Origin: Octopus vulgaris
Lineage: Eukaryota
DNA length: 64,000 bases
Reading direction: 5' to 3'
Assembly (NCBI GenBank): GCA_951406725.2
Contig: OX597826.1
Location: 1 to 64,000 of the forward strand
Below, one piece after another: positions 1 through 57,603 of this stretch. The position numbers and the translations under genes are program-made. Below the pieces are notes generated by a model. That model worked only from the letters and a program-made list of their open reading frames with translations, did no database searches and had not been told where the DNA came from. Every line of letters begins with the position of its first letter. Positions within the stretch are counted from its first letter, which is position 1.

Positions 1-1140
1 CTGGCCTGGCCTGGCCTGGCCTGGCCTGGCCTGGCCTGGCCTGGCCTGGCCTGGCCTGGCCTGGCCTGGCCTGGCCTGGCCTGGCCTGGCCTGGCCTGGC
101 CTGGCCTGGCCTGGCCTGGCCTGGCCTGGCCTGGCCTGGCCTGGCCTGGCCTGGCCTGGCCTGGCCTGGCCTGGCCTGGCCTGGCCTGGCCTGGCCTGGC
201 CTGGCCTGGCCTGGCCTGGCCTGGCCTGGCCTGGCCTGGCCTGGCCTGGCCTGGCCTGGCCTGGCCTGGCCTGGCCTGGCCTGGCCTGGCCTGGCCTGGC
301 CTGGCCTGGCCTGGCCTGGCCTGGCCTGGCCTGGCCTGGCCTGGCCTGGCCTGGCCTGGCCTGGCCTGGCCTGGCCTGGCCTGGCCTGGCCTGGCCTGGC
401 CTGGCCTGGCCTGGCCTGGCCTGGCCTGGCCTGGCCTGGCCTGGCCCTGGCCTGGCCTGGCCTGGCCTGGCCTGGCCTGGCCTGGCCTGGCCTGGCCTGG
501 CCTGGCCTGGCCTGGCCTGGCCTGGCCCTGGCCTGGCCTGGCCTGGCCTGGCCTGGCCTGGCCTGGCCTGGCCTGGCCTGGCCTGGCCTGGCCTGGCCTG
601 GCCTGGCCTGGCCTGGCCTGGCCTGGCCTGGCCTGGCCTGGCCTGTGGCCTGGCCCTGGCCTGGCCTGGCCTGGCCTGGCCTGGCCTGGCCTGGCCTGGC
701 CTGGCCTGGCCTGGCCTGGCCTGGCCTGGCCTGGCCTGGCCTGGCCTGGCCTGGCCTGGCCTGGCCCTGGCCTGGCCCTGGCTGGCCTGGCCCTGGCCTG
801 GCCTGGCCTGGCCTGGCCTGGCCTGGCCTGGCCTGGCCCTGGCCTGGCCTGGCCTGGCCTGGCCTGGCCTGGCCTGGCCTGGCCTGGCCTGGCCTGGCCT
901 GGCCTGGCCTGGCCTGGCCTGGCCCTGGCCTGGCCCTGGCCTGGCCTGGCCTGGCCTGGCCTGGCCCTGGCCTGGCCTGGCCTGGCCTGGGCCTGGCCTG
1001 GCCTGGCCTGGCCTGGCCTGGCCTGGCCTGGCCCCTGGGCCTGGCCTGGCCTGGCCTGGCCTGGCCTGGCCTGGCCTGGCCTGGCCTGGCCTGGCCTGGC
1101 CTGGCCTGGCCTGGCCTGGCCTGGCCTGGCCCTGGCCTGG
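1..1140. repeat. (CCTGG)n pentamer array at the sequence terminus; telomere-position repeat, possibly a base-calling artefact of (CCCTAA)n
   Basis: Near-perfect CCTGG tandem with occasional CCCTGG units that increase toward 1140, then interleave with CCCTAA units. Confidence 0.95.
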
Positions 1141-2039: not shown

Positions 2040-3800
2040 ATTGCAGAAACAATACTGCTGTCTTTAGTGTTCCCACTGATATTGACGTAAGAGAAGCGAA
2101 TGAAGTTGACTCCCAACACAAAATTGCAGACATAACCTTCACTCCCACTGACATCGTAGCAGCAATAAATGGGCTCAAATACTACTCTGCTGTAGGCCCT
2201 GATAGATTCCCCGCTAGTCTCCTGAAGGAATGTAAACACCAACTTGCAGTCCCACTGACCAACCTCTGGAGAAATTCGTTATATACCAAAACAGTTTCTA
2301 TCCCAGTCAGTCATCCCGGTTTTCAAACAGGGAAACAGATCCCTCGCACTCAACTATCGCCCAATCTCACTCACCTCCCACATCATCAAAGTGTTTGAAA
2401 GAGTGTTAAGATCAAGGATGGCTGACTTCCTGGAGACCCAGAAACTCCTAAATGCAAATCAGCATGGCTTTCGCTGTGGCAGGGACTGTCTAATACAGCT
2501 CTTACACCACATTGAAGATGTACTCAAAGCCTTGGGAACAGGTTCGAACTCTGACGTCATATATCTTGACTTCAGTAAAGCGTTCGACAGGGTAGACCAT
2601 AATATCCTACTCTCAAAATTGGCAAATGTTGGAATCCGTGGAAAAGTTCTACACTGGATCAAGTATTTCCTGGCGAATAGAACACATGTTGTAGTTGATG
2701 GAGTCCACTCAAGCCCAGCAAAAGTCACCAGCGGTGTCCCCCAGGGGACTGTCTTGGGTCCGCTACTCTTCATAATCAACATAAACGACCTTTCCAGTGT
2801 CGTACATTACTGCAAAGTGAAAATATTTGCTGATGACACCAAGCTCCACCAAATCGTCAATGAAGAAGCAGACCGAACTCAACTCCAGTCTGATCTATAT
2901 GCTGTGAGTCAATGGGCAAACAGAAACAAAATGCAACTGAACGAGGAAAATTTGAGCTGATGCATTTTGGAAGAAACTCCTCACTAAAACAGCCATACTC
3001 TCGTCCTTCAGAGGAACCGCTCACAGCTTCTAACAATATCAGAGACCTGGGTGTAATTGTTGATGACGATCTCAGTTGGAGTGCACACATCAACAAGAAG
3101 GTCGATATAGCTCGTAGGATGAGTTCCTGGATCTTAAGAACTTTCCGGTCCAGGGAACACGGTGTCATCATACCACTTTTTTCCTCCTTTGTACGGCCAC
3201 ACCTTGAATACTGCTGCCCACTGTGGTCTCCTCACACAAGACAAAACATCTCCAGAATTGAGTCACCCCAGAGGGCACTCACTAAACTGGCTGCTCTCGA
3301 TTATTGGGATCGCCTTAAAGCCTTGAAATTTTACTCCCTCCAGCGTCGCCGTGAGCGGTACATCATTTGTACGATGTGGAAAATATGCCGCCAACTATGC
3401 CCAAACGACCTAAACATTAGCTTCAAGGTTCATCCAAGACTTGGACCACGGGCTATACGTCCCCTGCCCAATACAAGATCACAACATACATGTACACTGC
3501 AACATAATTTCTTTTCCTCAACAGGCCCTGCCCTATTTAACATTGTCCCGAGAGAGATCAAAGAGGAAAAGGATCCCATCAAGTTTAAACAGAGTCTGGA
3601 TAGATTCCTTCAAAGAATACCAGATAAGCCACCCATAATTGGATATAACTCACCCAACAAGAACTCACTACTTGAACAAAACTTGACTTAAACAAAACTT
3701 GACTTAAACAGGATTCGAATAATCCTATCAGGTGGTGCTATTAAGTTAGACATGGCCTCGACCAATCTTTGGTCGAAACATATCTGATTTTATCTAAGTT
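2040..3800 (+). mobile_element. 5'-truncated CR1-clade LINE, frameshifted ORF2 (RT plus C-terminal domain)
   Basis: ORFs 2018-2398, 2391-2960 and 2912-3691 with GPDRFP, QHGFR, YLDFSKAFDRVDH, SGVPQGTVLGPLLF, FADD, RPHLEYC and LQRRRER; 3' UTR motif GGTGCTATTAAGTTAGACATGGCCT shared with the 47.8-kb copy. Confidence 0.92.
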
Positions 3801-4560: not shown

Positions 4561-5872
4561 GATACTAGAGCGCCGCCTTTAATCGATCACATCGTCCGCA
4601 GCACTTCTTTGTAAGCCTAGTATTTATTTTAACATGTTCTCTTTTGCCGAACCGCTAAAATACAGGGAGTAAAACACACCTGTATCGGTTAAAAGCATCA
4701 ACAACTACAGTCAATCGAAGATAATGACCAAACTGTCTACTCTTATCCACCAGTTCCAACACGATTTAACCAAAAAGGAGACAAATTGCTTGACTAGATT
4801 TCACTGCAAAGCCAGTAACATCTGTGAACTTCCCAAAATCTACAAAAGTTAAGCCATAAACAAAACCTGTAACAAGTTAACTTCTATAGTTATAAATATT
4901 CCACACCCGAGAGATCTCCGAATGATGCCAATTATGGCCAATCCAGGTATGTAGATACGGGAGGCATTGGGTGCTTAACACTCGCAAATCTGAATTCGCT
5001 AAAGGTGCAATAAATTGAACTTCTTTTCATTTAGAACTTAGGGATCTGCAAATGTGGGTATCTTAGAGATGCTTAAAGTGTTTGTTGTAGCTGTAATTGT
5101 CGCACACACACAAACGAATAAAAACAGTCGCTTACACACACGTACACACAGAAATAAAAACATTCACATAAAAACAAACACTGAAATGAAAATACCAATA
5201 CACACACACAAATAAAAACAGTCCCACGCACACAAACACTGAAAAAAAAATTCTCACAAAAACACTCACATACGCACAAAGACAAACACAAATGAAAATA
5301 CACAGCTACATATTCACACACTCAAACACGCGGACAAACACAGAAATGAAAACAGTTACATACCTACACATGCACAAACACAGACACACACAAATAGAAA
5401 TGAAAAATACAGTAACACATCCAAACTCTCACACACTAACATACGCACAAACACACACACACACACAAACATACGCACCCACACACAGAAATGAAAACGC
5501 AGTTACACACTCACACATAAAACCCTAACCCTAACTAGCACAAACATACAATTTATTCAGAATGTAGAGGGGTATTGGGTGCTTTGCACTCGCAGTTAGA
5601 ATATCATCTCCCTCCACGCCAGTATGAGAATTTCTTTCGTCCACTTGTGAAATTAATACATTGACGACACATGGGGAAAATATGAGCAACATCTCAAGTC
5701 ACTAAAGGTGCAATAAATTGAACTTATTTTGATTTAGTAGTTAGTGATCTCAAATGTGGGTATCTTAGAAATGGTCAAAGTGCTTGCTGCATTTGTAAGT
5801 GTCGCACACACACAAACAAATAGAAACACTCAGTCGCTCACACACTCGCGCACACAGAAAAAAAAGCACTCT

Positions 5873-9192: not shown

Positions 9193-11083
9193 TATACTGG
9201 AGCGCCGCCTTTAATCGATCACATCGTCCGCAGCACATATTCTTTGTAAGCCTAGTATTTATTCTAACTTATTCTCTTTTGCCGAACCGCTAAAATACAG
9301 GGAGTCAAACACACCTGTATCGGTTAAAAGCATCAACAACTACAGTCAATCGAAGATAATGACCAAACTGTCTACTCTTATCCACCAGTTCCAACACGGT
9401 TTAACCAAAAAGGAGACAAATTGCTTGACTAGATTTGACTGCAAAGCCAGTAACATCTATGGACTTCCCAAAATCTACAAAAGTTAAGCCATAAACAAAA
9501 CCTGTAACAAGTTAACTTCTATAGCCATAAATATTCCACACCCGATAGATCTCCGAATGAGGCCAATTATGGCAAATCCAGGTATGTAGATACGGGGTGA
9601 TTAACACTCGCAAATCTGAAGTCGCTAAAGGTGCAATAAATCGAACTTCTTTTCATTTAGAACTTGGGGATCTGCAAATGTGGGTATCTTAGAGATGTTT
9701 AAAGTGTTTGTTGTAGCTGTAATTGTCGCATACAAACAGACGCTCACACACACGTATACACAGAAATAAAAACATTCACACAAACACAAACACTGAAATG
9801 AAAACAGTTACATACCTACCCATGCACACACACAAACATACGCACCCACACAAACATACGCACCCACACACAGAAATGAAAACGCAGTTACACATTCACA
9901 CATAAAACCCTAACCCTAACTAGCACAAACATACAATTTATTAAGAATGTAAAGGGGCATTGGGTGCTTTGCACTCGCAGTTAGAATATCATCTCCCTCC
10001 ACGCCAGTATGAGAATTTCTTTCGTCCACTTGTGAAATTAATACATTGACGACACATGGGAAAAATATGAACAACATCTCAAGTCACTAAAGGTGCAATA
10101 AATTGAACTTATTTTGATTTAGTAATTTGTGATTTCAAATGTGGGTATCTTAGAAAATGGTCAATGTGTTTGTTGTAGTTGTAAGTGTCGCACACACACA
10201 AACAAATAGAAACACTCAGTCGCTCACACAAACAAATAGAAACACTCTGTGATTTCAAATGTGGGTATCTTAGAAAATGGTCAATGTGTTTGTTGTAGTT
10301 GTAAGTGTCGCACACACACAAACAAATAGAAACACTCAGTCGCTCACACAAACAAATAGAAACACTCAGTCGCTCACACACTCGCGCACACAGAAATAAA
10401 AACACTCACACACAAACACTGAAATGAAAATACCAACACTCACATAAATAAAAACAGTCCCACACACACAAGGAGCCCCAATAGGTCTATCAAAAAAGTT
10501 TCTAGTATTTTTCCTAGCCCATAATTTATGATAATTGAAATTATTACAATAAATAAATACCTACTAAATCAGTACATCGAACATTACGTCCCCGTAACTT
10601 ATCGGTTCTGCAAAATAGACCTATACATTAAGTAATAGGCATACAAAGAACAATTCCTGGGGTTGATTTGCTTGACTAGAGGCGGTGCTCCACCATGGTC
10701 ACAGTGAAATAACTGAAAGAGTCTACGAGCGACAAAGTCTATATTACGATAACTACAAAGTATCTTCTACAGTTACTTCCCTTGAATATTATAAGTTTAC
10801 AATAAAAAGTTAATACGCGGGGCAATTAACTCTCGGAAGGGAGATAACTAGATAACATCTTCCAGAGTTACTTTCCTTACATATAATTATATTACTTTTA
10901 ATAAGTTATAATGAGCAAGAGGAAGTAACTTTCGAATATATTATTCGAACATGACAGACTTTTACGATTTATTGGAGTTTAACTGCTCTCTCTAGTGGGT
11001 CGGATGTCCCATTATGGCCATCCCATATATGTTTAAATATCTATATGTATATACATATATCTGTCAATATATACCTATGTATA

Positions 11084-12478: not shown

Positions 12479-12512
<34 letters not shown>

Positions 12513-13518
12513 TTCGCGGTCCGACGTCTCCAGTGCGAGCAGTGGCGTGCCTCAAGGTTCAGTGCTTGGGCCCTTGTTGTTCTTAGTCTTCATAAATGAC
12601 TTGCCCGACGACCTCACGCAACACACCCTTCTATTTGCCGACGATATCAAACTGGTCGCTCCTCGCGGTAGTATAGAGGATCTTCGTCGATGCCTCCACC
12701 AAATTTGGAAGTGGTCTAACGATTGGGACCTGTGTCTGAACGTGTCAAAGTGCTGTCATCTGCCTGTCGGCTCTACTCCTGCAACTCAACTTGATTTCGA
12801 GCCGGGTCGTCTGCTGCTGGAGAGGACCGATCAGGTAAAGGACCTGGGTATCTTGGTGGATTCCTCCTTTTCGCCTTCGGCCCAGTGCGTCCATGCTGCC
12901 AACAAAGCGCGCGGAATTCTGTTTTTGATTCGACGGTCATTCGGAATGCTCACAGCAGCCATATTCCTGCCACTCTATGTCACGCTGGTGAGACCCATAT
13001 TGGAGTATGGGATTCAAGCCTCTTCTCCTTATCTCCTCAAAGACATACAGCACCTCGAAAGAGTCCAGGGGCTGGCTACCCGCATGGTTCATGGTCTCAA
13101 AAAGTTGTCCTACGAAGAAAGGCTGAGGACGCTCGACCTTTGTTCTCTTGAAAAACGCCGCCGCCGTGGTGATCTCATTCTCGCCCACAACATCATAAGC
13201 GGGAAGTGTAACCTCTCGAAAGAGCTGTTCTTCACTCCTGCTCCGGAGCGTCGGCTGTGGGGTCATTCCGAAAAGCTCTACCTGCGACGATTTCATCTCA
13301 ATCGAAGGAGAGGAGCTTTCTCCGTCCGGGTTGCGGATCCGTGGAACAAGCTGCCAGACGAGATGGTGAAGATGCCGACGACCGCTTTGTTCAAAGCCTC
13401 CCTGGACCTCAAGTGGCCTGAACTCTTTACATGAACACCACCCTGTACTTAACTCCATGTCCCCCTACATGGCCTTGCTATTTGCTTTTGAGCCAAATTA
13501 ACTAACTAACTAACTAAC
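12513..13518 (+). mobile_element. 5'-truncated CR1-clade LINE with (TAAC)n tail
   Basis: ORF 12547-13434 with [24 protein letters not shown] and SLEKRRRRGDLI; tail TTAACTAACTAACTAACTAAC; (TA)n on both flanks. Confidence 0.92.
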
Positions 13519-13553: not shown

Positions 13554-14196
13554 CGACATATAAATACACAAACACATACATGTGTGTGTGTGTGTGTATA
13601 TAAAGGTGCAATAAATTGAACTTATTTTGATTTATTATTTAGTGATCTCAAATGTGGGTATCTTACAAATGCTCAAAGTGTTTGTTGTAGTTGTAAGTGT
13701 CGCACACACACAAACAAATAGAAACACTCAGTCGCTCACACACTCGCGCACACAGAAATAAAAACACTCACACACAAACACTGAAATGAAAATACCCACA
13801 CTCACATAAATAAAAACAGTCCCACACACACAAGGAGCCCCAATAGGTCTATCAAAAAAGTTTCTAGTATTTTTCCTAGCCCATAATCTATGATAATTGA
13901 AATTATTACAATAAATAAATACTTACTAAATCAGTACATCGAACATTACGTCCCCGTAACTTATCGGTTCTGCAAAAGAGACCTTTACATTAAGTAATAG
14001 GCATACAAAGAATAATTCCTGGGGTTGATTTGCTTCACTAAAGACGGTGCTCCACCATGTTCACAGTGAAATAACTGAAAGAGTCTAAGAGCGACAAAGT
14101 GTATATTACGATAACTACATACTTAAGGGAGATAACTACAAAGTATCTTCTACAGTTACTTCCCTTGAATATTATAACTTAACAATAAAAAAATAA

Positions 14197-14646
14197 CGTA
14201 AGGGGGATCAGCCATCTGAATGTGGCTTGGGACAGGGCGGGGTGGTGGGGGTGTTACTGATGCTTTTAGCTCCGGGCGATCATCAACGTCACCAGAAGGA
14301 CTGACACCATATAGGTGTCCTCGTTTGCTTGTAAAAGGAGGTTATCCTTCCCCGAAGATACAGATGCTACATACGGACCGGTTTCGAGGTCATTGCCTCT
14401 TATCAACGTATGGTAAGCACCGTTCCTCGATGAAGGATTCCCTCTACAGGCAAAATATATAAGACTTTTCACAGTAACTACAGTCACTGATGTAGAAAAG
14501 CCGTCTGAAAACAATAATAAATCTCTGAACGAGATATAAACAGTAACTGCTCGACAACGTAAGGGGGATCAGCCATCTGAATGTGGCTAGGGACAGGGCG
14601 GGGTGGTGGGGGTGTTACTGATGCTTTTAGCCCCAGGCGATCATCA
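14197..14646 (-). mobile_element. Non-coding retrozyme / Penelope-pLTR-like element A (361-bp monomer plus 92-bp terminal direct repeat)
   Basis: Direct repeat 14195-14286 / 14556-14647 with 3 mismatches; 13-bp TSD AATAAAAAAATAA at 14184-14196 and 14647-14659; absent at the equivalent site of duplicon copies 1 and 2; contains a hammerhead. Confidence 0.82.
14363..14421 (-). ncRNA. Minimal type-I hammerhead ribozyme (U3-A8 core variant)
   Basis: Minus strand reads GGUGC-UUAC-CAUACG UUGAUAA GAGG-CAAUGA-CCUC GAAA CCGG UC^ CGUAUG-UA-GCAUC: perfect stems I and II, palindromic ACCGGU in place of stem III, GUC cleavage triplet. Confidence 0.85.
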
Positions 14647-14931
14647 AATAAAAAAATAATATGCAGGGAAATTAACTCTCGGAAGGGAGATAACTAGATA
14701 ACATCTTCCAGAGTTACTTTCCTTACATATAATTATTTTACTTTTATTAAATTATAATGTGCAAGAGGAAGTAACTCTCAAATATATTATTCAGACATGA
14801 CATAGACTTTTACGATTTTTTGGAGTTTAACTGCTCTCTCTAGTGAGTCGGATGTCCCATTATGGCCATCCCTTATATGTTTAAATATCTATATGTATAT
14901 ACATATATCTGTCAATATATACATATGTGTG

Positions 14932-14994
<63 letters not shown>

Positions 14995-15166
14995 CTATCT
15001 ATATACGACGGGCTACTTTCTGTTTCCGTATACCAAATCTACTCAGAAACGTTGGTCTGTCCGAGGCTATATTGGAAGACACTTGCCCACGGGGCCACGT
15101 AGTTGGACTGAACCAGAAACACCGTTTTTTGAAAGCAAGCTACATACCACAGCCACTCTTACTGCT

Positions 15167-15251
<85 letters not shown>

Positions 15252-29639: not shown

Positions 29640-30135
29640 ATATATAAAAATACAAAAGGGGACAAGAACGCAGAACATCCAGAAGACTATACAAAAAGCA
29701 CGGACGGGTCATTCGAAGCCTTTAATCTTCAGTCAAGAACCGGATCATCGGCTGATTAATCTTGGGATTGCTCTAATCTGGCCATCCCCAAGGAAAAGAA
29801 TAGCTAAGAGCATTAGATTCATTGGAAAAAAAGCTTCGAATGTATAGGACACAAGGACGGAAAAACGGACGATGTTACACGAATATAAATACAAAAATAA
29901 TACGAAAAAATAATAATAATAATATCAGGACATCACAACAGGCGTCTTTCGACTAGAGACGAATTGAATTCAGCAGGCGTGTAAGGAATTGAGCCTTACG
30001 GCAGAGAAAGGAAATGTTGATGTTTCAGCGACCTCGGCCAGACACAGAAAGGCCAGTAGTCCGCCAAGCGGACACGTGAGAAGATAAGAGAGAGGAAAAG
30101 GGGAACAAAGGAATTAAGAAGGGGGAGAAGAGAGA
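29640..30135. repeat. Unclassified interspersed-repeat-like segment abutting the satellite
   Basis: More GC-rich block after (TA)n with internal inverted motif CATTCGAAGC / GCTTCGAATG; no ORF. Confidence 0.3.
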
Positions 30136-33100
30136 GAATAGAAAAGTGTGAACTGAGGAAGATTTGACTAATATTTCTACAAGTCAAGCAGCTATTTAGA
30201 GGATCTGACATTGTTCCATTAGAATAAAAAAAGTGTGATCTGAGGAAGATTTGACTGCTATTTCTAGCAGGTGAAGCAAATATTTAGAGTATCTGACATT
30301 AGTCCATTAGAATAGAAAACTCTGATCCCAGGAGGATTTGACTGCTATTTCTAGCAAGTCAAGCAAATATTTAGAGGTTCTGACATTGGTTCATTAGAAT
30401 AAAAAAAGTGGGATCTGAGGAAGATTTGATTGCTATTTCTAGCAGTTAAGCAATGATTTAATTGATCGGACATTGTTCCATTAGAATAGAAGAGTGTGAT
30501 CTGAAGGAGATTTGACTGCTATTTCTAGAACGTCAAGCAACTATTTAGAGGATCTAACATTGGTACCTTAGAATAGAAAAGTGTGATCTGAGGAAGATTT
30601 GACTGCTATTTCTAGCAAGTCAAGCAACTATTTTGAGGATCTGACATTAGTCCATTAGAATAGAAAAGCGTGAGCTGAGGAAGATTTGACTGCAATTTCT
30701 CGCAAGTCAAGCAACTATTTACAGGATCTGAAATTGGTCCACTAGTATAGAAAAGTGTGATCTGAAGGAGATTTGTCTGCTATTTCTAGCAAGTCAAGCA
30801 ACTATTTAGAGAATCTGACATTGTGCCTTTAGAATAGAAAAGTGTGATCTGAGGAAGGTTTGATTGCTATTTCTGGCAAATCAAGCAACTTATTCAGAGG
30901 ATAATAACATTGGTCAAATTAGTATAGAAAAGTATGATCTGATGGAGATGTGACTGCTATTTCTAGCAAGTCAAGCATCTATTATTAGGATTTGACATTG
31001 TTCCAATAGAATAGTAAAGTGTGAGCTGAGGAAGATTTCACTGCTACTTCTAGCAAGTAAATCAATTAGCATGAGCTGAGGAAGATTTGACTGTTATTTT
31101 TAGCAAGTCAAGAAACTTTAGAGGTTCTGACATTGGTCCATGAGAATAGAAAAGTGTGATCTGATTAAGATTTGACTGCTATTTCTATCAAGTCAAGAAA
31201 CTATTTAGAGAATTTGACATGTTCCGTTAGAATAGAAAAGTGTGATCTGATTAAGATTTGACAGTTATTTCTAGCAAGTCAAGCAAGTATTTAGAGGATG
31301 TGACATTGGTCAATTAGAATAGAAAAATGTGATCTGAGGAAGTATAGGCTGCTATTTCTATCAAGTTAAGCAAATATTTAGAGGATCTAACATTGGTCTA
31401 TTAGAATGGAAAAGTGTAATCTCAGGAAGATTTGTCTGCTCTTTCTAGCAAGTCAAGCACTATTAAGAGCATCTGACATTGGTCCATTAGAAGAGAAAAG
31501 TGTCATCTGAGGGAGATTTGACTGTTATTTCTACCAAGTCAAGCAACTATTTAGAAGATCTGAGATTGGTCCTTTAGAGCATCTGACATTGGTCTATTAA
31601 ATAGAAAAGTGTGATCTGAGGAAGATTTGTCTCCTCTTTCTAGCAAGTCAAGCAACTATTAAGATCATTTGACATTTGTCCATTAGAATAGAAAAGTTTG
31701 ATCTGAGGAAGATTTTATAGATATTTCTAGCAAGTCAAGGAACTATTTAGAGGATCTGACATTGTTCCATTAGAAAAGAAACGAGTGATCTGAGGAACAT
31801 TTGATGGCTATTTCTAGCAAATCAAGCTTTTATTTAGACGATCTGACATTCTTTCATTAGAATAGAAAAGTGTTGTCTGAGGTAGATTTGACTGCTACAT
31901 CTTGCAAAGAAAGCACATATTTAGAGGATCTGACATTTGTCGATTAGAATAGAAAATTGTGATCTGAGGGAGATTTGACAGCTATTTCTATCAAGTCTAG
32001 CAATTATTTTGAGGTCTTGACATTGTTCCATTAGAATAGAAACGTGTAATCTGAGTAAGATTTGATTGCTATTTCTAGCAAGTCAAGCTTTTATTTAGAC
32101 GATCTGACATTGTTCCATTAGAATAGAAAAGTATGATCTAGGGAAGACTTGACTGCTATTTCTAGCAAGTGAAGCAACTATTTAGAGGATCTGATATTGT
32201 TCTATAAGAATAGAAAAGTGTGATAATACGGAGATTTGACTAATATTTCTAGCAAGTCAAGGAACTATTTAGAGGATCTGACATTAGTCATTAGAATAGA
32301 AAAGCGTGAGCTGAGGAAGATTTGACTGTTATTTTTAGCAAGTTAAGAAACTATTTAGAGGCTCTGATATTGGTCCATGAGAATAGAAAAGTGTGATCTG
32401 ATTAAGATTTGACTGCTATTTCTAGCAAGTCAAGCAACTATTTAGAGGATTTGACATTGTTCCATTGGAATAGAAAAGTGTGATCTGAGAAAGATTTGAC
32501 TGTTATTTCTAGCAAATCAAGCAAGTATTTAGAGGATCTGATATTGGTTCATTAGAATAGAAAAATGTGATCTTAAGAAGGTTGACTTCTATTTTTTGCA
32601 AATCAAGCAACTATTTAGAGGTTGTGACAATGGCCCATAAGAATAGAAAAGTTTGATCCAAAGGAAGTTTTGACTGCTCTTTCTAGCAAGTGAAGGAACT
32701 ATTTAGAGAATCTGTCATTGGTCTTTTAGAATAGAAAAGTGTGATCTGAGGAAGATTTGTCTCCTCTTTCTAGAAAGTCAAGCAACTATTAAGAGCATGT
32801 GACATTGGTCATTAGAATAGAAATGTGTGATCTGAGGGAGATTTGACTGCTATTTCTAGCAAGTCAAGCTTTTATTTAGATGATCTGACATTGTTCCATT
32901 AGAATAGAAAAGTGTGATCTCAGGAAGATTTGACAGCTATATCTACCAAGGAAAGCAACTATTTAGATGATCTGACATTGGTCAATTAGTATAGAAAATT
33001 GTGATCTGAGGGAGATTCGACTGCTAATTCTAGCATGTCAAGCAACTATTTAGAGATCTTGACATTGTTCCATTAGAATAGAAGAGTGTAATCTGAGGAA

Positions 33101-34720
33101 GATTTGATTTCTACTTCTAGCAAGTGAAGCAAGGATTTAGAGGATCTGATGTTGTTCCATTAGAATAGAAAATTGTGATAATACGGAGATTTGACTACTA
33201 TTTCTATCAAGTCAAAGATCTATTTAGAGGATCTGACATTGGTCCATTAGAATAGAAAAGCGTGAGCTGAGGAAGATTTGCCTGTTATTTTTAGCAAGTT
33301 AAGGAACTATTTAGAGGCTCTGATATTGGTCCATGAGAATAGAAAAGTGTGATCTGATTATGATTTGACTACTATTTCTAGCAAGTCAAGCAACTATTTA
33401 GAGGATTTGACATTGTTCCATTGGAATAGAAAAGTGTGATCTGAGGAAGATTTGTCTCCTCTTTCTAGCAACTCAAGCAACTTTTAAGATCATCTGACAT
33501 TTGTTGATTAGAATGGAAAAGTTTGATCTGAGGAAGATTTTATAGATATATCTAGCAAGTCAAGGAACTATTTAGAGGATCTGACATTGTTCCATTAGAA
33601 AAGAAACGAGTGATCTGAGGAACATTTGATGGCTATTTCTAGCAAGTCAAGCTTTTATTTAGACGATCTGACATTCTTCCATTAGAGTAGAAAAGTGTGA
33701 TCTGAGGAAGGTTTCACTGCTATTTTTAGCAAGTCAAGCAACTATTTAGAGTAACTGGCATTGATCCATTAATACAGAAAAGTGTGATCTAAGGGAGATT
33801 TGACTGTTATTTCTAGCAAGTGAAGCTAATATTTAGAGGATTTGATATTGTTCCATTAAAATAGAAAAGTCTGATATAAGGAAGGTTTGACTCCTATTTC
33901 TGTCAAGTCTAGCAACTATTTAGAGGATCTGACATTGTTCAATTAGAATAGAAAAGTGTGATCTGATGAAGATTTGACTACTATTTCTAGCAAGTCTAGT
34001 AACTATTTAGAGGATCTGACATTGGTCCATTAGAGTAGAAAAGAGTGATATGATGAAGATTTGACAGCTATTTCTAGCAAGTCAAGCTTTTATTTAGACG
34101 ATCTGACATTCTCTCATTAGAATAGAAAAGTGTGGTCTGAGGAAGATTTGACTGCTACATCTTGCAAGGAAAGCAAATATTTAGAGGATCTGACATTTGT
34201 CGATTAGAATAGAAAATTGTGATCTGAAGGAGATTTGACTGCTATTTCTATCAAGTCTAGCAACTATTTAGATATCTTGACATTGTTCCATTAGAATAGA
34301 AAAGAGTAAGATTTGATTGCTATTTCTAGCAAGTCAAGCATCTATTATTAGGATCTGACATTGTTCTATTAAAATAGAAAAGTGTGATCTAAGGAAGACT
34401 TGACTGTTATTTCTAGCAAGTCAAGCTTTTATTTAGACGATCTGACATTGTTCCATTAGAATAAAAAAGTGTAATCTGATGAAGATTTGATCGCCATTTC
34501 TTGCAAGTGAAGCAACTATTTAGAGGATCTGATATTGGTCCATTAGAATAGAAAAGTGTGATCTTATAAAGGTTGACTGCTATTTCTTGCAAATCAAGCA
34601 ACTATTTAGAGGTCATGACAATGGTCCATAAGAATAGAAAAGTTTGATCGAAAGGAAATTTTGACTGCTCTTTCTAGCAAGTGATGGAACTATTTAGAGA
34701 ATCTGTCATTGGTCTTTTAG

Positions 34721-35118
34721 TTAGTTAGTTAGTTAATTTTTTGGCTCAAATAGCAAAAAGCAAGGCCATGTAGGGGGACAAGGAGTTATGTACAGGGTGG
34801 TGTTCATGTAAAGAGTTCAGGCCACTTGAGGTCAAGGGAGACTTTGAACCGAGCAGTCATCGGCATCTTCACCATCTCATCTGGCAGCTTATTCCACTGA
34901 TCCGCAACCCGGACGGAGAAAGCCCCTCTCCTTCAATTGAGATGAAATCGTCGCAGATAGAGCTTTTCGGAATGACCCCACGGCCGATGCTCTGGAGCAG
35001 GAGTGAAGAACAGCTCTTTCGAGAGGTTACACTTTCCGCTTATGATGTTGTGAGCAAGAATGAGATCTCCACGGCATTGTCATTTTTCTAGAGAATAAAG
35101 GTCGAGCGTCTTCAGCCT
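34721..35118 (-). mobile_element. Short 5'-truncated CR1 copy inserted in the satellite (same family as 12513-13518)
   Basis: Reverse complement of ~13119-13518 including the (TAAC)n tail; TTTAG at both junctions. Confidence 0.92.
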
Positions 35119-36540
35119 TTAGAATAAAAAAGTGTGATCTGAGGAAGATTTGTCTCCTCTTTCTAGAAATTCAAACAACTATTAAGAGCATGTGACATTG
35201 GTCATTAGAATAGAAATGTGTGATCTGAGGGAGATTTGACTGCTATTTCTAGCAAGTCAAGGAACTATTTAGAGGATCTCACATTGGTCTATTAGAATAG
35301 AAAAATGTCATCTAAAGGAAGTTTTGACTGCTATTTCTAGCAAAGCAAGCAACTATTTAGAGGATCTGACATTGGTCTATTAGAATAGAAAAGTGTGATC
35401 TGAGGAAGATTTGTCTCCTCTTTCTAGCAAGTCAAGCAACTATTAAGAGCATCTGACATTGGTCCATTAGAATAGAAAAGTGTGATATAAGGAAGATTTT
35501 CCTGTCAATTATAGCAAGTCAAGCAACTATTTAGAAGATCTTATATTGGTGCATTAGAATAGAAAAGTCTGATCTGAGGAAGATTTGATTGCTATTTCTA
35601 GCAACTCTAGCAACTATTTAGAATGTCTGACATTGTTCCATTAGAATAGAAGCGAGTGATGTGAGGAACATTTGATTGCTATTTCTCGCAATTGCAGCTT
35701 TAATTTAGAGGATCTGACATTGGTCTATTTGAATAGAAATGTGTGATCTGAGGGATATTTGACTGCTATTTCTTGCCAGACAACCAACTATTTAGAGGAT
35801 CTGACATTGGGCGACTAGTATAGAAAATTGTGATCTGAGGGAGATTTGACTGCTATTTCTAGCAAGTCTAGCAACTGTTTAGATGATCTGATATTGGTCC
35901 ATTAGAATAGAAAAGTGTGATCTGAAGGAGATTTGTCTGCTATTTTTAGAAAGTCAAGCAGCTATTTAGAGGATCTGACATTGTTCCATTAGGATAGTAA
36001 AGTGATCTGAGGAAGGTTTGATTGCTATTTCTAGCAAGTGAAGCAACTTATTTTGAGGATCTGACATTGGTCCATTAGTATAGAAACGTTTGATCTGATG
36101 GAGATTTGTCTGTTATTTTTTGCAAGTCAAGAAACTATTTAGAGGTTCTGACATTGTTCCATTAGAATCGAAGAATGTAATCTGAGGAGGATGTGATTTC
36201 TATTTCTAGCCAGTCAAGCAACTATTTAGAGGATCTGATATTGTTCTATTAGAATAAAAAAGTGTGATAATACTGAGATTTGACTACTATTACTAGTAAG
36301 TCAAGGATCTATTTAGAGGAGCTGACATTGGTCCATTAGAATAGAAAAACATGAGCTGGGGAAGATTTGACTGTTATTTTTAGGAAGTCAAGAAACTATT
36401 TAGAGGTTCTGACATCAGTCCATGAGAATAGAAAAGTGTGCTCTGATTAAGATTTGACTGCTATTTCTAGCAAGTCAAGCAACTATTTAGAGGATTTGAC
36501 ATTGTTCCATTAGAGTAGAAAAGTGTGATCAGAGGAACAT

Positions 36541-36961
36541 TTACTCTTTACTCTTTTACTCTTTTACTTGTTTCAGTCATTTGACTGCGGCCATGCTGGA
36601 GCACCGCCTTTAGTCGAGGAAATCGACCCCGGGACTTATTCTTTGTAAGCCCAGTACTTATTCTATCGGTCTCTTTTTGCCGAACTGCTAAGTGACGGGG
36701 ACGTAAGCACACCAGCATCGGTTGTCAAGCAATGCTAGGGGTACAAACACAGACACACAAACACACACACATACATACATATATATATATACACATATAT
36801 ACGACAGGCTTCTTTCAGTTTCCGTCTACCAAATCCACTCACAAGGCATTGGTCGGCCCGGGGCTATAGCAGAAGACACTTGCCCAAGATGCCACGCAGT
36901 GGGACTGAACCCAGAACCATGTAGTTGGTTAGCAAGCTACTTACCACACAGCCACTCCTGC
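36541..36961 (-). mobile_element. Full-length tRNA-derived SINE inserted in the satellite
   Basis: Complete head, body, microsatellite and tail ending in (AAAAGAGT)n; the satellite monomer resumes in register. Confidence 0.92.
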
Positions 36962-38005
36962 TTTGATAGCTATTTCTAGCAAGTCAAGCTTTTATTTAGA
37001 TTCCATTAGAATAGAAAACTGTGATCTCAGGATGTTTTGACTGCTATTTCTAGCAAGTCAAGCAACTATTTAGTGGGTCTGACATTGGTCTATTGGAATA
37101 GAAAAGAGTGATCTGAAAAAGATTTGTTTCCTCTCTCTAGCAAGTCAAGCAACTATTAAGAGCTCGTGACATTGGTCGATTAGAACAGAAAAGTCTGATC
37201 TGAGGGAGAATTGACTGCTATTTCTAGCAAGTGAAGCAATTATTTTGCAGATCTGACATTGTTCCATTAGAGTAGAAAAGTGTGATCTAAGGAAGACTTG
37301 ACTGCTATTTCTTGTAAGTTAAGAAACTATTTAGTGGCTCTGGCATTGGTCCATAAGAATAGAAAAGTGTGATCTAATTAAGATATGACTGCTATTTCTA
37401 GCAAGTCAAGCAACTATTTAGAGGATTTAACATTGTTCCATTTGAATAGAAGTGTGATCTGAGGAAGATTTGACTGTTATTTCTAGCAAGTCAAGCTTCT
37501 ATTTAGACAATCTGACATTGGTCAATTAGAATAGAAAAATGTGATCTGAGGAAGATTTGTCTGCTCTTTCGAGCAAGTCAAGCACTATTAAGAGCATCTG
37601 ACATTTGTCCATTAGAATAGAAAAGTGTGATCTGAGGGAGATTTGACTGTTATTTCTACCAAGTTAAGCAACTATTTAAAGGATGTGACATTGGTCCATT
37701 AGAATAGAAAAGTGTGATCTGAGGAAGATTTTACAGTTATTTCTAGCAAGTCAAACAACTATTTAGAGGATGTGACATTGGTCCATTAGAATAGAAATGT
37801 GTGATAATACGGAGATTTGACTATTTCTAGCAAGTGAAGCTACTATTTAGAGGGTCTAAAATTGTTCCATTAGAATAGAAAAGCGCAATATGAGGAAGAT
37901 TTGACTGCTATATCTTGCAAGTCAAGTAATTATCTAGAAGATCTGACATTAGTCCATTAGTATAGAAAAGTGTGATCTGAGGAAGATTTGAATGCTATTT
38001 CTAGC

Positions 38006-38419
38006 AATCTGGTGACCCCATAGGTATATCAAAAAAGCTTCTAGTATCTTTCCTAGCCCATAATTTATTATTATAATTGAAGTTCTGATAATAAATTAAT
38101 ACCTACTAAATCAGTAGCCTGAGCAGAATCTGGTGACCCCATAGGTATATCAAAACAGTTTCTAGTATCTTTCTTAGCCCATAATTTATTATTATAATTG
38201 AAGTTCTGATAATAAATAAATACCTAGTAAATCATTAGCCTGAGCAGAATCTGATGCTCCCAAAGGTATATCTAAAAAGCTTCTAGTATCTTTCCTAGAT
38301 CATAATTTATCATTATAATTGAAGTTCTGATAATAAATACCTACTAAATCAGTATCCTGAGCAGAATCTGTTGCCCCCATAGTTATATCCCAAAAGTTTC
38401 TAGTATCTTTCCTAGCCCA
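38006..38419. repeat. ~121-bp minisatellite, ~3.4 copies
   Basis: Unit starts AATCTG at 38006, 38127, 38248 and 38365. Confidence 0.92.
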
Positions 38420-38657: not shown

Positions 38658-40281
38658 TTTTCTCTAGTATCAGCTCAGAGCTGCGGTCATGCTGATGCAC
38701 CGCCGTTTTGTGCTACACTGTTATTGCGAAGAACCTCGTCTAATATGTGGCACTTGGTGAAGAATGGAATTTCATATAGCTACTCTCATTTGCACCTCTT
38801 GCCCTGAGGTAGGTTCATCTGAGACTCTCGACAGGAAGATGTCCAGCTTTGATTTAAAAACTGCTACATCTACTTTGTGCAAGTTCCTCAGACTCTTTGG
38901 GAGAATATTAAAAAGCTGTGGGCCCTTGAAACCCAGGCTGTTGCAGAAGCTGGTCCTGAAGCGTGATGGCATTGCTGGGATATTTGGCACTATGCAGTGT
39001 CGTCCCGTTCTAGCATTGGTGTAGCTTACAATGCCAAAATTTGGTACAATTCCTTCCAGGATCTTCCAAACATATATTACTGCATACCTCTCCCGTCTTC
39101 TCTCCAGGGAGTAGAGTCTTAGCTGTTTCAACCTTTCCCAGTTGCTGAGCTGTTGCAAAGAGAGGATCTTCTTTGTAAATCTTCTCTGGATTGCTTCAAG
39201 GTCCGCTGTTAATTTTACACTGGTGGGTGACCATAGTTGTGAGCAGTAATCCAGGCGGCTGAGGACGAATGTCCGCCAGAGGACCATCATGGTTTCCTTA
39301 TCTCTGGTTCTGAATGTTCTTAGGATCCACCCAGCCAGTCGTCTGCACTTTGTCGCTATCCGGCTAATGTGCACTTGGAAAGAGTTATCATCACTCATGT
39401 CGATACCCAGGTCCCTCACAGACTTAGGTTCTAGGATTGAAATTCCCTGTGGACCGATGTATCCTGTAAGTTTAATATTCAGTTTTGGATGCTGGTAGCG
39501 CAGGGCCTGGAATTTTTCAGCATTAAACTGCATATTATTATCCTCAGCCCATCTGTAGATTTAGTCCAACTCCTGCTGCAGGTGTGCAACATCGCTGGGG
39601 TTCTGTATTTTCTGCGAGACTTTCGTGTCGTCTGCATAGCTGGCCAGAGTGGCTATCCGGGCATTTGAGGGCATATCTGAGAGGGCCACTATAAAAAGCA
39701 GTGGTCCCAAGACAGTGCCCTGTGGAACATCGCTCACTATTTGTGTGTTCATAGAGGTGGCTCCATTAACCACTACTGCCTGACTCCTATCTTTCAGGAA
39801 GTCATGTAACCACACTCCAAGTTTTCCAGCTATGCCGAGATCACGCAGTTGGTGGCATATCATACCATTATCCACCTTGTCAGAAGCTTTTACAAAATCA
39901 AGGTAGATTACGTCCACATTTGATTTGTTGAGTAACTGCCTCAACACTCATCATAATGTTGTAAGAGCTGGGTCAGGCAGCTCCTACCTGGTCGAAAACC
40001 ATGCTGGGTATCACTCAGCAAGTTATTTTCCTCAAGGAATGCGATTAGTTTCTTTCTGACTATCCGTTCCATAACTTTGCTGATGTGTGAGGTCAGAGAG
40101 ATAGGCCTATAGTTTTGGGCATCTGCCCTACTTCCCCCTTTATGTATTGGGTATATTATTCCCTCCTTCAGCCTGCTTGGCAGTTTGCCATTCGCAAGAA
40201 AGCTCTGGAAGAGAATCTCGAGGGGTTTTGCCAGGGCATGCTTACACGCTTTGAGGAGGATGGCTGGGAAACCATCTGGAC

Positions 40282-40284
<3 letters not shown>
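38658..40284 (-). mobile_element. 5'-truncated CR1-clade LINE with stops
   Basis: GPDGFP, NYRPISLTSHISKVMER, QHGFR, YLDFVKA, VPQGTVLGPLLF, YADD and SLERRRER. Confidence 0.92.
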
Positions 40285-40352
<68 letters not shown>

Positions 40353-40353
40353 A

Positions 40354-40387
<34 letters not shown>

Positions 40388-40389
<2 letters not shown>

Positions 40390-41270
40390 CTAGCAGCATA
40401 GCCCGCCGTTGCCCCCTAGAACCCAAGTTGGGTTCGGACCACAGCTGAGCCCTACCTAATCCTAACTTAACGCATCTACAGCCCAACATTGCTCGGATTT
40501 GAAGCAAAAGGAAAACATATGCCATTTCTAGTAACCTTTATGATAAAAGCGGCATAAATCGACTAAATCGCCTGAAATCCGCCAACTATTTAACAAAAGT
40601 CAGTTTTGTAGGGTTCGCATGGTCGGTCTCAAAGTGATATGGTTTTGTTGATTTCTCCCAATACTTGTTAACTGCATTGACAAAAGGTCGTTAGTTTGAC
40701 ATTTAATGCAACGTCGGTGTAGGGAAAATCTATGTGAACTTTCAAAAAATATCGCAGAAAAATCGGTTTGCTATGTGTGCCACATATGATGTAATTAACC
40801 GATTTTTTCCAGTAATAACGTATCCTATTGGAATCAAAAGGGCCATATAGCTCCTTGGAGCAGACATGATGCTCGCTGTGAATTTCATAAAAAATTCCTG
40901 CCAATTTGTTAAAGATATTGTTGAAAATATGTCATCTTGAATTTGAACGCGATTTCCCAAAATGGCATGATTTTATCGATTTTTTCTGATTGCATGGAAA
41001 ACTTACGCCAGAATTAAGTTCCTTAGGGTAACATTAAGCTTCACCATGAGTTTGGTGAAAATCGATTGCAAGTTGCGAAAACTACAACGGAAAATGTGTT
41101 GCATATGAAAAGCTTAGATTCTTGACCCCATGTCGAATCTATCGATTTTTTCAGAACTGGGGGAACTTTTCAAAATTTTCGCTGTGTTAGTTTTGAATTA
41201 TGACATTGGGCTATGTGTGTGTCAAGTTTCATCAGAATCGGTTGAAAGCCGTGGTCAGGGTGTGGGTACG
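40388..41270 (+). mobile_element. Non-autonomous Helitron/Helentron-associated (HINE-like) element, truncated
   Basis: Starts TACTAGCAG...GCCCGCCGTTGC after (TA)n; shares ~140 bp (41123-41262) with 52085-52224. Confidence 0.5.
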
Positions 41271-42398: not shown

Positions 42399-44414
42399 TC
42401 ATCATCATCATTGTTCACGGTCCATCATAGCATTACGGAGGTCCTGTTGCTGGATGCCTGTATCCCTGGAGATTACATCAGGGTAGGAGAGTGTGCGCCC
42501 TCTGGTGTTGCGAGTAGATGGCTTCCAGAGGAGAAGAGTAGAAATTACTTCTTTTTCAGCTCTACAACAATGTCCAGCAAACTGGACTCTCCTACCTTTC
42601 ACAAGAGATGACACAGGTGGTAATTTCCCATATATTTGCATTTTGGTTGGATGGCGCCTCCACGAGAGATTTTGAGCTCTCATAAGGAGGCGAGTGTAGG
42701 TTCCATCCAACCGCCTCTCAAGCTTCTTTGATAACGTCCAGGTTTCTGAGCCATATAGTAGGATTGGTTCAACTGTGGCTTTGAATATTTCAAGTTTGAA
42801 GTCTCTACTTAGATTTGATGACCAGATCTTATGCATGTCATTACAGGCTGACCAGGCCATACCCTTTCTAGTTAGAAAGTCTTTTGCAGATGATGATATG
42901 TATAACCCAAGATATTTATAATCAGAAACCATATTTAAAGGCGCACTGTTGAGAGTGTGGATGATGCAGTCACTGTTGGACAGGCACTTGTTTATGTATT
43001 CAGTTTTGGCCTCATTGAGGTAAAGACCTACACAATTTGAGGCTTGTTCAAGAGATTGTAAAAGAGACTGGGCATTGGAGAGAGAATCACTGATAAGAGC
43101 GATGTCGTCAACAAAGTCAGTGTCTGTCAAGTACTCAGCTGGGTGTCTGGAACTTCTTCTTGGTTTTATTTCAAAGCCCTTGCCAGAGATGGTATCAACT
43201 GACATACGTAGCACATAATCAACAACAATGATGAAAAGAAATGGGGCGAGTGTGTCTCCCTGCAGTATTCCGGCTTCGATTGAGAAAGATGATGTTTCTC
43301 CATCAGGGGTTAAGATGGCTGAAGACGTATCTGTGTAGAGGACCTTGATGGCAGAAATAATTTTGTCTGGTATCCCATAGAGCTTAAGGATTTCAAACAT
43401 CTTGCACCTATCTACAGAATCGAACGCTTTAGAAAAGTCTACAAATACCATTGCAAGATCGCGATTAAATGCTTTTGATTCTTCAATAAGTCTGCGCAGG
43501 CATAGTATCTGGCTCAGCGTTGAGCGCCCATGTCTGAATCCATTTTGGTTCTTTCGGAGCAAAGGTTCAACAAAAAGGACAAGACGATTTAGGATCAGTT
43601 TGTTGTACAGTTTTGCAGCAATTGACATTAAAGATATGCCCCTGTAGTTGGTGACGAGGGACAAATCGCCTTTTTTGGGTATTGGAATAATTTGAGATTG
43701 GTGCCAAATCTTTGGAGCGACAAAGGTGGAAAGTGTGTGGTTGCAGAGGTTGAGCAAAAGTGTGTGAAATCTATCATCCTTCCAAATCACAGCCGGAATG
43801 TTGTCGGGACCAAATGCTTTCGAGGCTTTTAGTTGCTTGGTGGCTGCTGTTAGTTCAAATATGGTAAAAGGGGAGGTGTTGATGTCCAGCGTGTCTGATA
43901 TAGGCACACTTGGGAGAGTGGGGTTATCAGGGATTTTGGCATTCTTCCCAAGGAGGTTTTTAAAATGGGTTGACCAATTTTCTAAACGCTTCTTAGCTGA
44001 TCCCCCTTTAATTCTAATTGATGACCCAGAATTTTTGCCTGATAGGTCTTTGATGGATTTCCAGGCGAGATGGTGCTTTTTACTAATGTGCTCTTTCGAT
44101 AGTTTACTAATTTTGCCATTGATAAATTCGACCTCGGCGTTCAAGTAAGCCTCATCAAGATTCTTCCTGGCAGCTATGAGTTGGATCTTCAGTGACTGGG
44201 ATGGAGAACGGTGGTAAGCTAGTAATATAGATGGTTTCTGGCTTCGATGACATTTGGGGAATTAGGTTTGCTCTGGCCCCTACTCTTCCTTTTGGGAAGA
44301 GTAGCCAATGCAACTTCCTCTGTTGATTTGATGAGGCTGCTGTATACTTCCTCAATGTTCTCAGCATCTATTTCAGAAGTAGACAGAGATTGAAATTCTG
44401 TAGACAGAGATTGA
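42399..44414 (-). mobile_element. 5'-truncated RTE-type LINE with (ATG)n tail
   Basis: 10-bp TSD AACAACTACA at 42389-42398 and 44415-44424; empty site visible at ~4700 and ~9336. Confidence 0.93.
42408..44144 (-). CDS. LINE reverse transcriptase ORF (578 aa uninterrupted; endonuclease region lost)
   Basis: GPDNIP, NYRGISL, QNGFR, FVDFSKAFDSV, GILQGDTLAPFLF, DFVDD, YKYLG and LLYGSETW. Confidence 0.88.
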   Translation of the reverse strand: MNAEVEFINGKISKLSKEHISKKHHLAWKSIKDLSGKNSGSSIRIKGGSAKKRLENWSTHFKNLLGKNAKIPDNPTLPSVPISDTLDINTSPFTIFELTAATKQLKASKAFGPDNIPAVIWKDDRFHTLLLNLCNHTLSTFVAPKIWHQSQIIPIPKKGDLSLVTNYRGISLMSIAAKLYNKLILNRLVLFVEPLLRKNQNGFRHGRSTLSQILCLRRLIEESKAFNRDLAMVFVDFSKAFDSVDRCKMFEILKLYGIPDKIISAIKVLYTDTSSAILTPDGETSSFSIEAGILQGDTLAPFLFIIVVDYVLRMSVDTISGKGFEIKPRRSSRHPAEYLTDTDFVDDIALISDSLSNAQSLLQSLEQASNCVGLYLNEAKTEYINKCLSNSDCIIHTLNSAPLNMVSDYKYLGLYISSSAKDFLTRKGMAWSACNDMHKIWSSNLSRDFKLEIFKATVEPILLYGSETWTLSKKLERRLDGTYTRLLMRAQNLSWRRHPTKMQIYGKLPPVSSLVKGRRVQFAGHCCRAEKEVISTLLLWKPSTRNTRGRTLSYPDVISRDTGIQQQDLRNAMMDREQ

Positions 44415-56739: not shown

Positions 56740-56776
<37 letters not shown>

Positions 56777-57167: not shown

Positions 57168-57603
57168 ATAATTAAATCTCAGAATGAGATTGAAACAGTA
57201 ATCGCTCGATAATGTAAAGTATAGAAGCCATCTTATCATGGCTAACCACATTGGGGAGGGGGTGTTACTGTAGCTTTATAGCCCCAAGAGATCTTCGTCT
57301 CTAGCTGGCCTTAGACACAATATCAGTGTCCTTGGAGTATTTGCAAAGGGAGGCCATCCCTTCCTCGCAAGCCTGAGTGATACGCTCGAACTAGTTTCGG
57401 GATTGTTGTCCCTCGTCAACGGGCGGTAACCACCAGGTAGCGATGAAAGTGAAGGCTGCTTTGCAAACATATATAAGTTTTTCTAATGGCGTCTGCCACT
57501 GATGTCGAAAAACGAACAGTAAGCATAATTAAATCTCAGAATGAGATTGAAACAGTAATCGCTCGATAATGTAAAGTATAGAAGCCATCTTATCATGGCT
57601 AAC
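57168..57603 (-). mobile_element. Non-coding retrozyme / Penelope-pLTR-like element B (357-bp monomer plus 79-bp identical terminal direct repeat)
   Basis: Direct repeat 57168-57246 / 57525-57603; motif-for-motif homology to element A with a different start point; contains a hammerhead. Confidence 0.8.
57372..57437 (-). ncRNA. Minimal type-I hammerhead ribozyme (U3.G8 core variant)
   Basis: Minus strand reads CCUGGUGG-UUAC-CGCCCG UUGACGA GGGA-CAACAA-UCCC GAAA CUAG UU^ CGAGCG-UA-UCACUCAGG; palindromic ACUAGU; one C-A mismatch in stem I; GUU triplet. Confidence 0.78.

Follow-up and report, generated by a model that had tools for sequence, protein, structure and literature searches.

Sister families of probable hammerhead retrozymes with U3 cores in the genome of Octopus vulgaris

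Background

Hammerhead ribozymes associated with Penelope elements, including a variant with a U3-A8 pair in the catalytic core, were reportedly described by Lunse et al. in 2017. In the accessible parts of other published sources, the U3-A8 pair is given as a natural covariation that is active in vitro (PMC3088659), and about 1,300 Penelope-associated matches carrying it are reported from Schistosoma (PMC4209133). The latter source also describes the 'canonical' animal type I architecture, to which the two motifs presented here (A and B) conform. For motifs with a palindromic remnant of stem III the published model is cleavage as a dimer (PMC4209133; PMC6765202), and only one of nine predicted dimers of Xenopus retrozymes was cleaved in vitro (10.64898/2026.07.22.740005). 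Mussel retrozymes have units of 350-390 bp (PMC7229834), and retrozymes have been proposed to be dependents of Penelope elements (10.64898/2026.07.22.740005). Among Penelope-type elements, Poseidon_Ac shows two internal starts of reverse transcription, a tail and an AT-rich target (PMC11167929). Hammerhead cleavage is dispensable for Penelope insertion in vitro (PMC11167929), and Penelope elements occur in inverted arrangements (PMC8557442).

Our literature search retrieved the U3-A8 pair; neither a natural hammerhead with U3.G8 or U3.G8/U17 nor a paper on a cephalopod retrozyme surfaced, within a scope that excluded supplements, Lunse 2017, Przybilski and Hammann 2007, and Nelson and Uhlenbeck 2008, so that absence from print is not established. 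In a 2026 annotation of octopus repeats (PMC13282606), the word 'ribozyme' is absent from the main text. An earlier note on this DNA, made from the letters alone, had implied that the atypical core of both motifs was new, but U3-A8 is a published natural covariation. What may be new is a young and abundant family fixed for U3.G8 with U17; U3-A8 cores and retrozymes are already known.

Here we describe motifs A and B and their relatives. The window analysed is a stretch of 64,000 nucleotides (contig OX597826.1, positions 1 to 64,000) that forms the start of a chromosome-sized contig in a 2.8-Gb genome and has telomere-type repeats at its left end. Our reading, to which we assign a probability of about 0.7, is that A and B represent sister families of ~360-nt retrozymes, likely cleaved as dimers by way of a palindrome, and that the enzyme copying them into AT-rich DNA is likely a reverse transcriptase/endonuclease of the Penelope type.

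Several other repeats share the window. About 225 copies of the 5-nt repeat CTGGC (1-1437) lie distal to about 45 CCCTAA telomere-type repeats. An 87-bp tandem array of about 85 copies occupies 30135-38007 and is interrupted at 34720-35120 by a piece that recurs in inverted orientation at 13118-13518. Further frames, one for a transposase and the others for LINE-type reverse transcriptases, are located at 2259-3691, 12493-13434, 38772-40537, 42408-44261, 47902-49491, and 46305-47216.

Results and discussion

Two type I hammerheads

We identified two hammerhead motifs in the window:

14362..14422, minus strand: hammerhead A, type I, with outer helix and UUAC/UA loop (sequence reading)
57375..57435, minus strand: hammerhead B, type I, with U3.G8 core (sequence reading and a sub-threshold Rfam HH9 match)

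Motif A lies where the earlier note had placed it, and its stem I, core, stem II and palindrome read as claimed there; the second motif, given in that note without coordinates, was located at the position listed. The core of hammerhead A (UUGAUAA) contains a U3-A8 pair (14406 and 14401) and is accompanied by stem I CAUACG/CGUAUG, stem II GAGG/CCUC, loop II CAAUGA, GAA, and the palindrome ACCGGU. The cut is predicted 3' of C17 (14376) at a GUC site. The core of hammerhead B (UUGACGA) carries a U3.G8 wobble (57419 and 57414), with stem I CGCCCG/CGAGCG, stem II GGGA/UCCC, loop II CAACAA, and the palindrome ACUAGU. Both motifs had been said to keep every helix and to share a GUC site. However, stem I of B carries a C.A mismatch (57422.57386), and its site is GUU, the U17 (57389) having been overlooked. 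The invariant core nucleotides U4, G5, A6, A9, G12, A13, A14, A15.1, and U16.1 are present in A and B. Position 17 is an H in both, as C17 in A and as U17, which is allowed if poor, in B, and the 3/8 pair is a Watson-Crick U-A in A and only a U.G wobble in B.

Both motifs consist of a stem I of six positions, a stem II of four base pairs, an outer helix, a UUAC/UA internal loop and a CAA..A hexaloop. The two loops, rightly singled out before as contact elements, are features of the Rfam HH9 consensus, and the match to its loop I/loop II contact is one of sequence. The label 'minimal' is inappropriate for these motifs, which have the type I architecture with a full stem I, an outer helix and HH9-like loops. 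The minimal PLE hammerhead (min-HHR), which has a long stem II, a short stem I and an ill-defined loop 1, was ruled out for A and B; in contrast to it, both have a 4-bp stem II, a defined loop 1 and no flanking open reading frame (ORF).

A search of the whole window against Rfam matched B to HH9 at 31.2 bits (E 7e-4), below the gathering score of 52, and gave no match for A at E<=1. No hammerhead in the window passes at the gathering level, and neither A nor B is a member of HH9 (RF02275) by that measure. A 31-place pattern of the architecture has exactly two matches in the window, A and B, versus 0.00 in 100 shuffles, and no third copy was found in the window by the pattern or by a covariance model built from relatives. 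The lone 61-nt motifs fold in a weakly unusual manner (z -2.27 for A, -0.27 for B), and in the minimum-energy folds of the monomers (A -18.2, B -14.7 kcal/mol) G5-A6-N7 is tied up with the GUH site. The core is surrounded by three helices, of which stem I is open, and covariation backs them; stem III is possible only between two copies. Anatomy and covariation among relatives together uphold the assignment to type I hammerheads.

Core variants across the genome

A genome-wide census with the 31-place pattern returned 2,889 matches, and the reversed pattern returned none. The matches divide into 1,732 with U3-A8, 669 with C3-G8, 343 with U3.G8 and 145 with C3.A8 (the last by subtraction), U3 being the majority state (2,075/2,889). 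Because the pattern fixes most core letters, these counts cannot test core conservation, and because it fixes loop lengths, families with a longer stem III are left out. A search for CUGANGA is blind to both A and B, as had been pointed out, and would miss 2,220 of the 2,889 matches in this genome; counts of animal hammerheads may therefore be too low.

B-type matches make up 87 of the first 100 with U3.G8 (counted by eye). In rows collected by BLAST and not by pattern, U3-A8 is present in 37 of the 38 family A rows with a core, and U3.G8 with U17 in 40 of the 41 family B rows; one A row without a core was dropped, and six A and two B rows are repeats from overlapping loci. The stem I mismatch is repaired in none of the 41 genomic B rows. 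The odd cores are characteristic of the families and do not reflect decay. At L040:1897-1970, a B insertion with twin arms has one arm that is unlike its partner at several core positions (C3, G9, C17) and has more core differences than other arms show.

Covariation and probable dimer cleavage

Covariation was scored in 99 distinct copies, found by a pattern without any demand for pairing and with identical copies counted once. Pairing is seen in 499 of 594 cells of stem I (340±11 after shuffling of partners), in 350 of 396 of stem II (279±5), and in 402 of 594 of the outer helix (310±11). A hand-picked set of 27 family representatives pairs in 87.3% of cells; both sides vary in 17 of its 19 pairs, and its covariation score is 0.756 versus 0.274 for shuffled and at most 0.168 for slid controls. 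Pairing far above the shuffled controls in the 99 copies and the covariation score of the 27 bear out the covariation claimed earlier from the two motifs, with the qualification that the copies are related and the shuffles thus overstate significance.

In 92 of the 99 copies (shuffle 35±4.5), the two bases at the centre of stem III complement each other, and all four Watson-Crick palindromes are used. Since these bases are adjacent, they are unable to pair in a monomer. Longer relatives have 8-nt palindromes. When two copies are co-folded, a swapped double hammerhead is the minimum-energy structure (A -44.3, B -34.8 kcal/mol, compared with 2 x -18.2 and 2 x -14.7 for monomers). The covarying palindromes and the predicted co-folds favour cleavage as a dimer, so that this part of the earlier interpretation is likely to be correct. 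In the predicted dimer of B, the palindrome duplex is extended by A14-U17 pairs, which would hold two core positions in the wrong state and could block catalysis.

Probable retrozyme units and insertions

Each hammerhead lies within an insertion of about 1.2 units of a ~360-nt non-coding repeat:

14195..14647, minus strand: retrozyme insertion A, a 361-nt unit plus a 92-nt repeat of the unit (453 nt, one hammerhead)
14185..14194, plus strand: target-site duplication, left copy, AT-rich, 10 nt (up to 13 with microhomology)
14648..14657, plus strand: target-site duplication of insertion A, right copy
13601..15187, no strand given: copy of the host repeat, split at an AT-rich site by insertion A
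14455..14500, minus strand: conserved upstream boxes with a TATA-like element, candidate promoter (from conservation)
57168..57603, minus strand: retrozyme insertion B, a 357-nt unit plus a 79-nt repeat of the unit (436 nt, one hammerhead)

The A and B units are 69% identical. Insertion A ends 181 nt past the cut site (site 1), and a contig of sequencing run X8 skips 466 nt at this place, 463 being expected for an empty site. Insertion B ends 221 nt past the cut site (site 2) and has no target duplication, its right flank resuming further along the host repeat. It abuts the homologous AT-rich site in another copy of the host repeat (55822-57165); the repeat is a composite of 2-3 kb, and both insertions border one and the same AT-rich site of it. 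In an overview of 148 loci, no further locus with an arm at that subtelomeric target stood out. The composite repeat is headed by a decayed 80-codon piece of a Penelope-type ORF (4706-4948, 9341-9583, 44421-44666, and 55524-55694) with stops and with 38-51% identity to a 781-aa protein.

A DNA search of the genome gave 1,374 (A) and 1,341 (B) first-look candidates, which are not copy numbers; the best 40 per family are 88-96% (A) and 95-99% (B) identical to the window copies. At 60 loci, only more unit or host DNA lies upstream of the units, with no shared ORF or coding extension. The circular unit is predicted to fold on itself more stably than shuffled sequences (z -3.9 for A, -3.4 for B; 60 shuffles). 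A non-coding unit of 170-400 nt with one type I hammerhead and many dispersed copies, as expected of an animal non-LTR retrozyme, is found in both families. The tandem hammerheads of retrozymes are found at family level only: complete direct pairs occur at 3 of 30 loci of B and at none of 30 of A, and dimers of an A sister occur at L114 and L115. Each window copy has a single hammerhead; both insertions are likely dead ends. The conserved boxes upstream in unit A may constitute a promoter.

History of the B lineage

In a tree of 100 rows, A and B fall into one clade (support 100/100). B-type matches comprise 136 with C17, where A8 is present in 96 of the first 100, and 266 with U17, where G8 is present in 95 of the first 100. 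In the tree of the B lineage, which kept 14 of 42 G8 rows, the subfamilies form a ladder. The U17 rows are a supported group (96/86) inside the A8/C17 rows, and G8 is nested within the U17 group at a weak node (94/78), which places U17 before G8. Because the G8/U17 rows are nested among A8/C17 rows, U3.G8 is derived from U3-A8 and is not a one-step change from C3-G8. The stem I mismatch predates both U17 and G8 (it is present in L091, with C.U in L071). We infer from these trees that B reached U3.G8/U17 stepwise from a U3-A8/C17 ancestor. Mean identity is 96.5% within the G8/U17 rows versus 92.6% in the nearest A8/C17 group, 30 of the G8/U17 loci having been chosen for their likeness to the window copy.

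Both a wobble at 3/8 and U17 lower the rate of a hammerhead. With these two departures and the C.A mismatch together in one motif, and with an inhibitory A14-U17 pairing in the predicted dimer, the hammerhead of family B could be dead or nearly so, and the family could have spread as a short Penelope-dependent element from uncleaved tandem transcripts. We consider this unlikely, though it is the strongest of the alternatives. Ten fixed differences set the G8/U17 rows apart from the nearest A8/C17 subfamily, and two of them affect the 13 core sites, where 0.6 are expected; this excess on the B branch is not significant (P=0.11), and both core changes are of the mildest possible kind, one a wobble and the other a U within the NUH rule (PMC3884650, PMC3088659; accessible parts). 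Nearly all of the 41 BLAST-found rows retain stem II, the palindrome, both contact loops and the remaining invariant letters, and U17 also occurs beside intact Penelope-type ORFs. Spread without cleavage would be in keeping with insertion in vitro, for which cleavage is not needed (PMC11167929), and with Naiad elements, which thrive without hammerheads (PMC8557442), as far as the accessible parts of these sources go. On the retrozyme reading that we prefer, A would be an ordinary, somewhat slower U3-A8 ribozyme and B a weakened but still selected one.

A speculative extension of that reading, of doubtful standing in our own estimate, is that the youngest B branch spread through a ribozyme detuned first by U17 and later by U3.G8, whose slower cleavage would spare multimers or circles as Penelope templates and so give more copies. 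Sister subfamilies differ by single core changes in a known order and with known relative copy numbers, so that cleavage rate can be compared with genomic success. If detuning were true, the dated allelic series U3-A8/C17, U3-A8/U17, U3.G8/U17 would tie hammerhead rate to transposition success and give direct access to the part that hammerheads play in retrozymes and Penelope elements, where they are widespread, slow in vitro and, in one reconstituted system, dispensable for insertion.

Mobilisation and a probable Penelope-type helper

Counted from the cut site, the 3' ends of family A fall at +178..181 in 25 of 37 arms and at +223..229 in 9 of 37, and those of family B at +176..181 in 18 of 40 arms and at +221..231 in 20 of 40. 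Two fixed 3' end sites about 45 nt apart are therefore common to both families, and each is preceded by a short hairpin in both units (by eye). At two-armed loci the twin arms are inverted, with one 3' site per arm in 16 of 20. Insertion flanks are 86-90% AT. Arms exceed one unit in 14 of 37 cases (A) and 26 of 40 (B), and copies of more than a unit with a single hammerhead would need a tandem or circular template. The 3' ends, tail, AT-rich flanks and inverted arms of A and B match, by analogy, Penelope-type insertion.

Intact Penelope-type frames are present in the genome, where 16 of 148 matches to GIY-YIG fall within 781-aa frames that combine a reverse transcriptase with GIY-YIG as the C-terminal domain. 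Thirteen of 30 GIY-YIG loci have a hammerhead-like motif of their own that is of the U3-A8 kind and has a palindrome downstream; U17 is present in six of them. These Penelope-linked motifs (L240:4360-4430 and 12 other loci) have GUU or GUA sites, and their shape differs from that of A and B in a longer stem II, a stem I of A and U only, and the lack of an outer helix. The Penelope flanks showed no homology to the units at the DNA level in the 40 stretches sampled around GIY-YIG matches, few beside the 6,136 candidates; the sole match was a retrozyme piece near L242, and the helper is therefore inferred from its footprints. No ORF with reverse transcriptase and GIY-YIG is joined to an A or B unit in 60 loci, as an autonomous Penelope element would have, and the reverse transcriptase frames of the window have no match to the Penelope reverse transcriptase domain.

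The same 3' tail, inversions and AT-rich targets would also be expected if the motifs were not retrozymes and instead were terminal-repeat remnants of truncated autonomous Penelope-like elements, and U3-A8 with a palindromic stem III occurs both in the local Penelope flanks and in PMC4209133 (accessible part). This alternative is largely refuted by the 60 loci, where only unit or host DNA lies upstream and no ORF is shared, as well as by the different shape of the local Penelope-linked motif and its lack of unit homology, and we regard it as very improbable. The link to Penelope elements proposed in the earlier note is sound for the palindromic stem III, which is as published, but the carriers are protein-free ~360-nt retrozyme units, not a Penelope element proper.

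C.A mismatches in helices are typical editing sites. In contigs of the probable RNA runs X1 and X4, A>G differences are clustered on the strand antisense to unit B (57235-57320); the cluster is rare in the probable DNA run and may reflect editing of double-stranded RNA from inverted arms. Despite this cluster, it is hardly credible that A-to-I editing by the host corrects the C.A mismatch or produced G8 in family B, as 57386 is unchanged in four runs (in contigs, which drop rare variants), none of the 41 genomic B rows has the mismatch repaired, sense A>G accounts for only one of the ten fixed differences, and the mismatch position is C.U or bulged in relatives.

Returning to retrozymes as the preferred reading, the unit would be transcribed from a promoter within it, and the resulting multimers would be cleaved to unit length, between paired copies via the palindromic stem III, probably to give circles. 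A Penelope-type reverse transcriptase/endonuclease would then copy the repeat into AT-rich DNA.

A LINE at the foot of the hammerhead

A young L1/Tx1-like LINE targets one site across divergent retrozyme families (loci L149-L208). The corresponding boxes of the window are both empty:

14418..14431, minus strand: ATCG..GGTG box of A, 25 nt upstream of position 3; LINE site in relatives, empty here
57431..57444, minus strand: corresponding ATCG..GGTG box of B, again 25 nt upstream of position 3; the LINE occupies it in the close relatives L091 and L154, empty here

In L091 (G000:C1:68119000-68127500), the LINE lies 25 nt upstream of hammerhead position 3 with a duplication of ~17 nt, and its domains are a zinc knuckle, an endonuclease, a reverse transcriptase and zf-RVT. 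A search with its 3' end gave 541 candidates, of which the best 40 were scored and 30 loci examined; 29 of these 30, including the query locus, run on into retrozyme units of diverse core types. At the 5' end, 29 of 30 loci (again including the query) follow retrozyme sequence and one follows another LINE. Tandem LINE stacks are present at L171 and L187. At L092:1690-3112, the 3' end of a different LINE fragment joins a unit of a C3-G8 family 26 nt upstream of position 3, which suggests a second targeting LINE family. A TATA-like box lies 31-32 nt upstream of the LINE site in A and B, and the site (ATCG box) is a likely candidate for the transcription start. No paper on a LINE with a hammerhead retrozyme as target surfaced in the literature search. 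A site-specific LINE beside a ribozyme represents a parasite of a parasite.

Comparison with known systems

In what follows, published systems are compared as described in the accessible parts of the sources. Like animal non-LTR retrozymes (PMC7229834, 10.64898/2026.07.22.740005), A and B are short protein-free units (350-390 nt in mussel) of under 46% GC, with one canonical type I hammerhead per unit, a range from monomers to short tandems, a circle predicted to be self-paired, and co-occurring Penelope elements. Unlike them, the octopus units have a majority of U3 cores and one young subfamily with U3.G8 and U17, and no homology to a local Penelope terminal repeat was found for them in 40 stretches. 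Mussel retrozymes differ further in that the contact loops here are HH9-like and A and B are known from genomic sequence alone.

With Penelope-associated hammerheads (PMC4209133), A and B share type I, a palindromic remnant of stem III, predicted dimer cleavage and the U3-A8 pair. In contrast to these hammerheads, they have a full stem I, an outer helix and loop-loop elements, and no flanking reverse transcriptase/GIY-YIG ORF. The likeness to Rfam Hammerhead_HH9 (RF02275) consists of the UUAC/UA loop, a loop II of the CAAAAA type, a 6-bp stem I and the outer helix; unlike HH9, A and B are without a stem III hairpin and have U3 in the core, B scoring 31.2 of 52 bits and A having no match.

The two internal starts of reverse transcription that give a tail, and the AT-rich targets, are shared with Poseidon_Ac (PMC11167929). 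Here, by contrast, the passenger is non-coding, the sites are ~45 nt apart with one per arm, and the pattern is deduced from genomic ends only. The LINE resembles target-specific LINEs of the Tx1 clade (PMC4494074) in being young, in its zinc-knuckle ORF1 and its ORF2 with endonuclease, reverse transcriptase and zf-RVT, and in using one site in another repeat. It is Tx1-like by domains, not by tree, and, in contrast to Tx1L, Keno, and Tx1-Mar (PMC4494074), its target is a hammerhead retrozyme.
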